Shown here: piece by piece, positions 2,569 to 4,482 of the stretch
Layout of the letters: every line of letters begins with the position of its first letter
How positions within the stretch are numbered: the first letter of the stretch is position 1
Source: a virus
Taxonomy: Duplodnaviria > Heunggongvirae > Uroviricota > Caudoviricetes
DNA length: 4,482 nucleotides
Strand: one strand, 5' to 3'
IMG/VR virus record: IMGVR_UViG_2648501466_000024
Notes under the pieces: model-generated
Database searches by the model: none
The model's input: only the letters and a program-made list of their open reading frames with translations
What the model was told of the DNA's origin: nothing
Made by a program: the position numbers and the translations under genes

Positions 2569-3312
2569 ATGACACAGACTGAATCAGCGATTCTGGCGCA
2601 TGCCCGGCGGTGTGTGCCTGCGGAGTCGTGCGGCTTCGTGGTGAGAACGCCGGAGGGGGAGCGGTATATCCCTTGTGTGAATATCTCTGCAGAGCCGGAG
2701 GCGTATTTTCGTATTGCACCGGAAGACTGGCTGCGGGCAGAGATGCAGGGGGAGATTGTGGCACTGGTCCACAGTCATCCCGGTGGTCTGCCCTGGCTGA
2801 GCGAGGCCGACCGGCGGCTGCAGATAAAAAGTGCACTGTCCTGGTGGCTGGTCTGCCGGGGGGAAATTCATAAATTCCGCTGTGTGCCACATCTGACAGG
2901 ACGGCGCTTTGAGCACGGGGTGACGGACTGTTACACGCTGTTCCGGGATGCCTACCATCTGGCGGGAATTGATATGCCGGATTTTGAGCGTGAGGATGAC
3001 TGGTGGCGCAACGGTCAGAACCTGTACCTGGACAATATGGAGGCGACTGGTTTTTACAGGATTTCCCTGCCTTCCGCACAGCCTGGCGATATCCTGCTGT
3101 GCTGCTTTGGCGCATCGGTGGCCAATCATGCCGCCATATACTGCGGCAACGGTGAGCTGCTTCACCATCTGCCTGAACAACTGAGTAAACGGGAGAGGTA
3201 TTCCGAAAAATGGCAACGACGAACGCATTCAGCCTGGCGTCACCGCCACTGGCACGTATCTGCCTTCACGGGGATTTACAACGATTTGGCCGCCGCCTCA
3301 GCCTGTATGTGA
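2569..3312 (+). CDS. K: Tail tip assembly protein K, two-domain JAB/MPN (JAMM) plus NlpC/P60-like
   Basis: 247-aa reading from ATG 2569 (10 nt after the L stop) to TGA 3310-3312. Contains an exact H-x-H-x7-S-x2-D JAMM motif (HSHPGGLPWLSEAD, nt 2770-2811) and a downstream Cys/His region (GVTDCYTLF with Cys at 2929-2931; NHAAIYCG; LLHH) consistent with an NlpC/P60 papain-like fold. Start is uncertain: ATG 2569 has no clear Shine-Dalgarno sequence, while the in-frame ATG at 2743 would give 189 aa. Confidence 0.85.
   Translation: MTQTESAILAHARRCVPAESCGFVVRTPEGERYIPCVNISAEPEAYFRIAPEDWLRAEMQGEIVALVHSHPGGLPWLSEADRRLQIKSALSWWLVCRGEIHKFRCVPHLTGRRFEHGVTDCYTLFRDAYHLAGIDMPDFEREDDWWRNGQNLYLDNMEATGFYRISLPSAQPGDILLCCFGASVANHAAIYCGNGELLHHLPEQLSKRERYSEKWQRRTHSAWRHRHWHVSAFTGIYNDLAAASACM
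2770..2811 (+). other. JAMM metalloprotease signature within K
   Basis: HSHPGGLPWLSEAD fits H-x-H-x(7)-S-x(2)-D exactly. Candidate upstream Glu residues (e.g. E19, E29/E31 of the long K form) are only present if K starts at 2569. Confidence 0.7.
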
Positions 3313-3890
3313 ACACGGCAGCGGAAGCCATCCGTGCCCTGTCGATGCAGATGCCGGGATTCCGCCGTCAGATGAACGAAGGCTGGTACCAGATACGTAT
3401 TCGCGGTGAGGACACGGCACCGGAGGCGGTGTACGCCCGTCTTCACGAACAACTGGGTGAGGGAACGGTCATCCACATTGTGCCGCGACTGGCCGGGGCC
3501 GGAAAGGGTGGACTGCAGATTGTGCTGGGGGCGGCAGCCATCGTGGGCTCTTTCTTCACTGCCGGGGCATCAATGGCGTTATGGGGTTCAGCCCTGGCAG
3601 CCGGTGGTTTTTCTGCCACCACGATGCTGTTTTCACTGGGGGCCAGCATGATACTGGGCGGTGTGGCCCAGATGCTGGCCCCGAAGGCAAAGACGCCGGA
3701 GTACAAAAGTACGGATAACGGTAAACAGAACACGTATTTTTCGTCACTGGACAACATGATTGCCCAGGGGAACCCGATGCCGGTGCCTTACGGTGAAATG
3801 CTGGTTGGCTCCCGGCGAATCTCCCAGGACATCAGCACCCGTGATGAAGGTGGTGGCGGGAAGGTGGTGGTTATCGGGCGGCAGGGGTAA
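3210..3890 (+). CDS. I: Tail tip assembly protein I
   Basis: 226-aa ORF with gpI-like motifs ARICLHGDLQRFGRR, VIHIVPRLAGA, a Gly/Ala-rich hydrophobic segment, and KQNTYFSSLDNMIAQGN / YGEMLVGSR. Strong Shine-Dalgarno sequence GGGAGAGG (3191-3198) 11 nt upstream of ATG 3210. The first 103 nt overlap the 3' end of K in a different frame, as in lambda. Confidence 0.92.
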   Translation: MATTNAFSLASPPLARICLHGDLQRFGRRLSLYVNTAAEAIRALSMQMPGFRRQMNEGWYQIRIRGEDTAPEAVYARLHEQLGEGTVIHIVPRLAGAGKGGLQIVLGAAAIVGSFFTAGASMALWGSALAAGGFSATTMLFSLGASMILGGVAQMLAPKAKTPEYKSTDNGKQNTYFSSLDNMIAQGNPMPVPYGEMLVGSRRISQDISTRDEGGGGKVVVIGRQG

Positions 3891-3896
3891 AAAGAA

Positions 3897-3930
3897 TAAA
3901 AAAATCCCGCAGAGTTGCGGAGCTGCGGGA
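3897..3930 (-). terminator. Terminator-like hairpin with T-tract on the minus strand, just downstream of the I stop
   Basis: 8-bp inverted repeat TCCCGCAG (3905-3912) / CTGCGGGA (3923-3930) with a 10-nt loop. On the + strand it is preceded by an A-run (3897-3904, within AAAAAGAATAAAAAAA), so on the minus strand the hairpin is followed by a T-run. On the + strand there is no U-tract after the stem. Confidence 0.45.
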
Positions 3931-4060
3931 AGAGATACAAAGATTAACTATAGAGAATTATTCTTATGTCACGACAAAAAAATTAACGCAGAGAAATTAT
4001 TAGCGCCACAGTCAGTTTGTGAAAATGTGAAGATATTCAGAATTTTTATTCAGTGATGAT

Positions 4061-4094
4061 ACAGGCATCCTCCGGGATGCCTGTTGTTTTTGTG
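4061..4094 (+). terminator. Rho-independent terminator-like hairpin (+ strand) between I and J
   Basis: Perfect 10-bp inverted repeat ACAGGCATCC (4061-4070) / GGATGCCTGT (4075-4084) with 4-nt loop TCCG, followed directly by TGTTTTTGTG (4085-4094). Lies 33 nt upstream of the J start codon. Confidence 0.6.
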
Positions 4095-4126
4095 CGTGAA
4101 CAGTTATCACAGTAAAGGGTGAGACA

Positions 4127-4482
4127 ATGGGCAAAGGTGGCGGCAAGGCGCACACGCCGGTAGAGGCAAAGGACAATCTTAAGTCCACGCAGATGATGAG
4201 CGTGATTGACGCCATTGGTGAAGGGCCGATTGAAGGTCCGGTGAAGGGACTGCAGAGTATTCTGGTGAACAAAACCCCGCTGACGGACACGGACGGCAAT
4301 CCTGTGATACACGGCGTGACCGCGGTCTGGCGCGCCGGGGAGCAGGAGCAGACACCACCCGAAGGCTTTGAGTCCTCCGGCTCTGAAACCGGACTGGGCG
4401 TGGAAGTGACGAAGGCAAAGCCGGTAACGCGCACCATTACATCCGCGAACATTGACCGCCTGCGGGTCACCTTCGGGGTGCA
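4127..4482 (+). CDS. J: Host specificity / tail tip central fibre protein J, N-terminal 118 codons (3'-truncated by window edge)
   Basis: Translation MGKGGGKAHTPVEAKDNLKSTQMMSVIDAIGEGPIEGPV...TITSANIDRLRVTFGV is a clear match to the lambda gpJ N-terminus as I recall it. Shine-Dalgarno sequence AAGGGTGAG (4115-4123) precedes ATG 4127. The ORF is open to the window end. Confidence 0.95.
   Translation, partial: MGKGGGKAHTPVEAKDNLKSTQMMSVIDAIGEGPIEGPVKGLQSILVNKTPLTDTDGNPVIHGVTAVWRAGEQEQTPPEGFESSGSETGLGVEVTKAKPVTRTITSANIDRLRVTFGV

Follow-up and report, generated by a model that had tools for sequence, protein, structure and literature searches.

The long, two-domain form of tail tip assembly protein K in a lambda-like phage, and a single G absent from the lambda reference sequence

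The window, that is, the whole stretch of 4,482 nucleotides analysed here, covers the tail-tip portion of a tail module like that of lambda, running from the end of H through M, L, K and I to the start of J, and is 95-96% identical over its whole length to Stx-converting phages of E. coli. Its genes and the junction between L and K are arranged as follows.

33-1526: H, end of the gene (from the ORF list)
1519-1860: M (from the ORF list)
1860-2558, + strand: L, minor tail or tail tip protein L, the upstream neighbour of K (from the ORF list; TIGR01600)
2556-2558: stop codon TAA of L
2559-2568, + strand: spacer of 10 nt between L and K, ATCCCGGTTT, without a Shine-Dalgarno sequence
2569-3312, + strand: K, the whole coding sequence, 247 aa plus stop, a predicted JAB/MPN and NlpC/P60 tail tip assembly protein
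3210-3890, + strand: I, tail assembly protein I, the downstream neighbour of K
4128: ATG at the start of J, which reads MGKGGGKAHTP...

L matches the NCBIfam equivalog TIGR01600 (phage_tail_L) with 372.9 bits, and K lies between L and I in an H-M-L-K-I-J module whose order is that of lambda, which is the position of TAPK, the lambda K protein. The coding sequences of K and I overlap by 103 nt (3210-3312). Inside this overlap the synonymous divergence of K falls from approximately 0.16 to 0.05 and pN/pS rises to 0.54, as expected if both the K and the I frames code. Protein I, which carries a ubiquitin-like domain (PMC1779556), is 67% identical to lambda I, and its start is preceded by a Shine-Dalgarno sequence (-8.5 kcal/mol) that stands 9 nt away. 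The long version of I, beginning at ATG 3210, looks right, since a shorter I would lose the first strand of the ubiquitin-like domain and since this ATG has a good Shine-Dalgarno sequence; two lambda records, PV340536 and KT232076, put the start of I at the K stop. The A/T-rich gap between I and J (3891-4127) measures 237 nt in the window versus 60 nt in lambda, and is closed by a terminator-like hairpin at about 4062-4094 (acaggcatcc tccg ggatgcctgt, followed by the T-rich tgtttttgt), with J just downstream. In Stx2a_WGPS2, an IS66-family element lies inside this gap.

The reading frame of K begins at ATG 2569-2571, 10 nt past the L stop, and continues to TGA 3310-3312, giving a 744-nt ORF of 247 codons. 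Whether its first 58 codons belong to the protein is the matter in dispute, and the features within K that bear on it are given below.

2569-2742, + strand: disputed N-terminal extension of 58 codons (partial Prok-JAB match, pN/pS, secondary structure in the AlphaFold2 model)
2623-2625, + strand: codon GAG of E19, the predicted JAMM glutamate, within P17-x-E19-x-C21-G22 (conservation)
2697-2715, + strand: GGAGG (2697-2701; -9.5 kcal/mol) and, 11 nt further on, codon 49
2743-2745, + strand: second in-frame ATG, codon 59, the candidate start of a short form of 189 aa
2770-2811, + strand: H68-S-H70-x7-S78-x2-D81, the predicted zinc-binding part of the JAMM motif (conservation)
2899-3240, + strand: NlpC/P60 (C40) domain, residues 111-224 (PF00877, 49.9 bits, profile positions 1-105 of 105)
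2929-2931: C121, the predicted NlpC/P60 catalytic cysteine, whose site is completed by H187 and H199

No Shine-Dalgarno sequence was found at ATG 2569 or at ATG 2743 by duplex energy against the 16S tail (-2.4 and -3.6 kcal/mol, respectively, against a median of -4.0 for all positions in the window), so that start signals cannot choose between the two; the initial annotation had likewise considered the signal at 2569 weak. It had also described the frame as open up to ATG 2569, 10 nt after the L stop, for which the coordinates are right, although the openness does not end there and continues to a stop codon at 2296-2298 (open from 2299), and two more ATGs of this frame, 2398 and 2431, lie within L. 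The probability of 58 open codons arising by chance is about 0.06, from (61/64)^58; because openness by itself is only mildly unlikely, the significance of the extension rests on its conservation.

For this purpose, the comparison set comprised 80 viral-contig loci and 8 annotated phage records, and counts over 88 refer to 87 loci (that is, without the lambda reference) plus the window. K is matched as a single uninterrupted protein in 87/87 related loci, the lambda reference excepted; the 744-nt ORF is found in 87/88 and begins with ATG at codon 1 in 86/88, and the spacer between L and K is either 10 nt or 5 nt among these relatives. Across 75 distinct sequences from close relatives, with approximately 85-100% protein identity, pN/pS for codons 2-58 is 0.26 in the K frame, compared with 2.5 and 2.2 in the other two frames. 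Since substitutions are mostly synonymous in the K frame and the frame is open in 87/87 loci, the extension is coding, with somewhat weaker constraint than the rest of K outside the I overlap (0.145). Frameshifts or stops within 2569-2742, which according to the initial annotation would have counted against the long form, occur solely in the lambda reference record, where a single base is omitted.

More distant relatives are in line with the long form. A search with one representative per 50%-identity cluster recovered many homologues of 230-260 aa with 35-50% identity, whose own N-termini align at query residues 4-10. In an alignment of 56 diverse homologues, the residues of the extension that are invariant or at least 90% conserved are P17, E19, C21, G22, N38 and F47, with G22 invariant and P17, E19 and C21 at 90% or more. 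Downstream of the extension, H68, H70 and D81 are invariant in the same alignment, while S69, P71 and S78 reach at least 90%; the second domain has D120, H187 and H199 invariant, with C121 at 90% or more. Some E. coli K proteins of odd length (P0003, 277 aa; P0005, 282 aa; P0070, 204 aa) show another kind of variation, including internal tandem duplication of about 30-35 residues in the JAB or the NlpC/P60 domain and, in one of the three, an internal deletion that takes out the HxH region. These duplicated or deleted variants may be assembly errors or decaying prophage copies.

Profile comparisons separate the long and the short products clearly. Residues 3-105 of the 247-aa K cover positions 3-113 of the 114 in the Prok-JAB profile (PF14464) with 56.6 bits, against Pfam cut-offs of 25 bits for this family and 23 bits for PF00877. 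The 189-aa form retains NlpC/P60, whereas its Prok-JAB match is reduced to a C-terminal fragment (positions 66-113 of 114) of 24.2 bits, below the cut-off, so the incomplete JAB core that the initial annotation had foreseen for a short product is indeed what the profile returns. The 58-residue extension alone matches Prok-JAB positions 3-57 with 30 bits. Lambda K shows the same pattern, with a full JAB match for the corrected protein and 23.3 bits for the annotated 199-aa form. Among PDB sequences searched by profile, 2kks and 2kcq, both JAB proteins, match from profile position 3, and the NCBIfam desampylase profile aligns with residues 3-103 at 30 bits, far from its cut-off of 130. PHROGs represents K only in pieces, namely phrog_7305 (76 positions, "unknown function", covering K residues 1-76), phrog_2635 (the N-terminal 135) and phrog_2552 (the C-terminal 142), which suggests that fragmented K annotations are common among phage records.

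With the extension included, K contains a complete E-x(n)-H-x-H-x7-S-x2-D motif composed of E19, H68 (2770-2772), H70 (2776-2778), S78 (2800-2802) and D81 (2809-2811). The expectation of the initial annotation that the extension would supply the JAMM glutamate thus holds with E19, and the span that it had singled out ends at 2811, the last base of the Asp codon. The N-terminal domain (residues about 3-105) would accordingly be classed, from its motif and its modelled fold, as a putative JAB/MPN+ (JAMM) zinc metalloprotease. The C-terminal domain (residues 111-224) scores above the cut-off for PF00877, has one Cys and two His at the expected site (C121, H187 and H199) and matches the fold of MepS/Spr, and is predicted to be an NlpC/P60 papain-like cysteine peptidase.

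An AlphaFold2 model of K, built on the alignment of 56 homologues, has a mean pLDDT of 96.9 and a pTM of 0.91. In this model, the MPN elements lying in or across the extension are a helix at 3-15, strands at 21-27 and 30-36 and a helix at 51-60, and a K starting at residue 59 would lack the first helix, both strands and most of the second helix. In Foldseek searches, the first domain aligned with Pyrococcus JAMM1 (5ld9/5lda; about 110 columns, rmsd about 2.5 A, target-normalised TM-score 0.68-0.69) and further with 2kks, AMSH, Rpn11 and CSN5, which gives the N-terminal domain an MPN fold at the level of the predicted structure; the second domain matched MepS/Spr. Taken together, we assign a probability of approximately 0.92 to the reading that K starts at ATG 2569 and that its product is a single cytoplasmic assembly protein of 247 aa containing two peptidase domains.

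The annotation of lambda itself appears to disagree with this reading. The last base of L in NC_001416 is 14127, and the annotated K spans 14276-14875 (3777-4376 in locus L001), which leaves an L-K gap of 148 nt and a protein of 199 aa. The initial annotation had given this length correctly but had placed the lambda start near the equivalent of ATG 2743, whereas it corresponds to codon 49 (2713-2715), 10 codons further upstream; its description of a tight, lambda-like L-K junction is right for the 10 nt seen here and applies to lambda only once the sequence is corrected, when the annotated gap shrinks to 5 nt. An unannotated ORF of 76 codons at 14133-14363 (3634-3864 in L001), beginning MTQTESAILAHARRC..., is homologous to the N-terminus of the window K and leaves the K frame after GEPEA. 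NC_001416/J02459 is without one G after 14266 (GAGGC^TATTTCC), the counterpart of which in the window is G2703 by alignment, and it is the absence of this G that breaks the lambda K ORF into the 76-codon piece and the annotated piece.

The G is present in five other lambda-derived records (PV340536, lambda imm21, DE3, KT232076 and LC730321), and the reference version is found among lambda-like records only in J02459, NC_001416, OR474059 and OR974322. When the G is restored, lambda K has 247 aa and starts 5 nt after L, matching the annotation of PV340536. Many complete E. coli genomes carry the corrected 302-nt stretch with 100% identity, under the annotation C40 family peptidase. The DE3 and imm21 records contain the G and retain the 199-aa annotation, which was apparently carried over by annotation transfer. 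Judged from these records, the 199-aa K of lambda is the result of one G absent from the 1982 sequence and does not represent a biological short form; the strong GGAGG before codon 49 is probably one reason why the original annotation, and gene calls made later, settled on that start.

It is unlikely, for lambda alone, that the absent G was a real mutation in the 1982 stock, with a split or truncated K and tails still assembled. OR474059 and OR974322 also show the reference version, but the former is an unverified record of an engineered strain and the latter has coordinates and annotation identical to the reference, so that neither is clearly independent. Against a real mutation stand the five records with the G, one of which, LC730321 (Lambda_AGU), also lacks one G of the reference at position 138, near cos and upstream of nu1 (GCGAGGCTTTTT in L092 versus GCGAGCTTTTT in L091). 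The corrections to J02459 listed by a commercial supplier of lambda DNA, namely removal of a G at 138 and addition of one at 14266, agree with the record differences at both positions. Moreover, the site is a G/C-rich run (GGAGGCG), and such runs are prone to gel compression. Among the papers covered by a full-text literature search, none was found to state that the short lambda K stems from an error in the reference.

Also unlikely is the production of two isoforms, namely the 247-aa K from 2569 and a shorter NlpC/P60 protein with a JAB remnant, initiated at codon 59 or, in lambda-type phages, at codon 49. Other lambda genes have nested starts, and if two forms of K were made, tail assembly would hinge on their ratio. 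The ATG at codon 59 is kept in 86/88 close relatives, but it is without a Shine-Dalgarno sequence, its duplex energy lying above the window median, and residue 59 is other than Met in the more distant homologues shown; a product from this residue would, in the AlphaFold2 model, start where a helix ends and retain one half of the MPN domain. In favour of a start at codon 49, a strong GGAGG stands 11 nt before it, and lambda and some relatives (8/88) have ATG there. Codon 49 is, however, ATT or ATC in 80/88, and because it reads ATT in the window, the lambda reference start does not exist here; the GGAGG itself is accounted for by coding need, as it spans E42-P43-E44-A45 of a conserved P-x-x-x-F segment.

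The reading in which only the short form is made, with K starting at ATG 2743 (189 aa) and 2569-2742 being an untranslated spacer open by accident, can be considered effectively refuted by profile, selection and residue conservation. A short K is annotated in the lambda reference as well as in several records derived from it, and the exact 189-aa protein has been deposited on 9 contigs; the lambda annotation, however, goes back to one absent base, purifying selection acts on the extension in the K frame alone, the extension holds invariant residues of the family as well as the catalytic Glu, and both the full JAB profile match and the fold need it. Equally improbable is a longer K of 293 or 304 aa from ATG 2431 or 2398 inside L, for which the upstream open frame and an 882-nt version annotated in NC_004813 (BP-4795) speak, but which is ruled out by the spacer variants, since the 5-nt difference in the L-K spacer changes the upstream frame among relatives and in the 28 loci whose spacer is 5 nt long the K frame extends just 6-7 codons further upstream and has no ATG there, and by the lack of conservation of the added segment, the JAB profile and all distant homologues beginning at residues 1-10 of the 247-aa form. 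The BP-4795 gene, ORF70 (2931-3812 in locus L002), is named "putative tail fiber component" and, with its 293 aa from the equivalent of ATG 2431, is 46 codons too long.

For the 247-aa K from ATG 2569, the closest known system is corrected lambda K (gpK, or TAPK; PV340536, XSB40720.1, 247 aa), which is 86% identical over 245 of 247 aligned residues and has in common with the window K the L-K-I-J order, the JAB and NlpC/P60 domains and a start right after L. The two differ in the L-K spacer (10 nt in the window, 5 nt in corrected lambda) and at codon 49 (Ile in the window, Met in lambda). Prokaryotic JAMM/MPN+ isopeptidases that remove ubiquitin-like proteins, such as Pyrococcus furiosus JAMM1 and haloarchaeal desampylase, share the fold and the full E...HxH-x7-S-x2-D motif; identity to them is only 20-24%, however, and K is fused to a second peptidase domain and has no more than a putative substrate. 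With NlpC/P60 cell-wall endopeptidases such as E. coli MepS/Spr, K has the fold and the Cys-His-His catalytic residues in common, but unlike these enzymes it is a phage assembly factor whose N-terminus, MTQTESAILAHARRC..., judged by eye, bears no resemblance to a signal peptide. Peptidoglycan as a substrate of K is doubtful, because gpK is an assembly factor not detected in virions and its N-terminus is not signal-peptide-like.

Beyond the reading frame, domain boundaries, conserved catalytic residues, fold and the purifying selection acting on the extension established above, a working model of K can be outlined. As its ATG has no Shine-Dalgarno sequence and lies 10 nt (5 nt in other relatives) past the L stop, ribosomes that finish L probably re-initiate at K, in agreement with the coupling suggested earlier. 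In line with Iyer et al. (2006), K would be a putative assembly-time protease, probably acting on its neighbour protein I during tail-tip assembly and left out of the virion. These authors proposed that the JAB domain frees the ubiquitin-like N-terminal domain of protein I (PMC1779556). Lambda gpK is needed for tail assembly and has not been detected in virions, and the part of gpI resolved in the tail tip is limited to residues 135-223 (PMC10721106, PMC12617516). The absence of gpK from virions and the partial gpI are consistent with the model of Iyer et al., and neither proves cleavage.

The 247-aa K from ATG 2569 is correct and already known: the identical protein occurs on 978 public contigs under the RefSeq multispecies name "C40 family peptidase", K is annotated from the same start in the close relative Stx2a_WGPS2, and K has been known as a two-domain protein since 2003-2006 (PMC1779556). 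The annotation of the window is accordingly unchanged, the long form already being standard for the identical protein. It is in NC_001416/J02459, the most widely used lambda reference, that K (NP_040598.1) is short by a quarter of its length and misses the catalytic Glu of the JAB domain. This truncated entry is still in use: a 2020 review applied structure prediction to the 199-aa K and reported a peptidase domain only (PMC7291167), and a 2025 screen gives NP_040598.1 as the expressed gpK (PMC12236752), for which reason the lambda reference error merits a curation note. Tests of whether K processes the ubiquitin-like protein I, as has been proposed (PMC1779556), require the 247-aa form.
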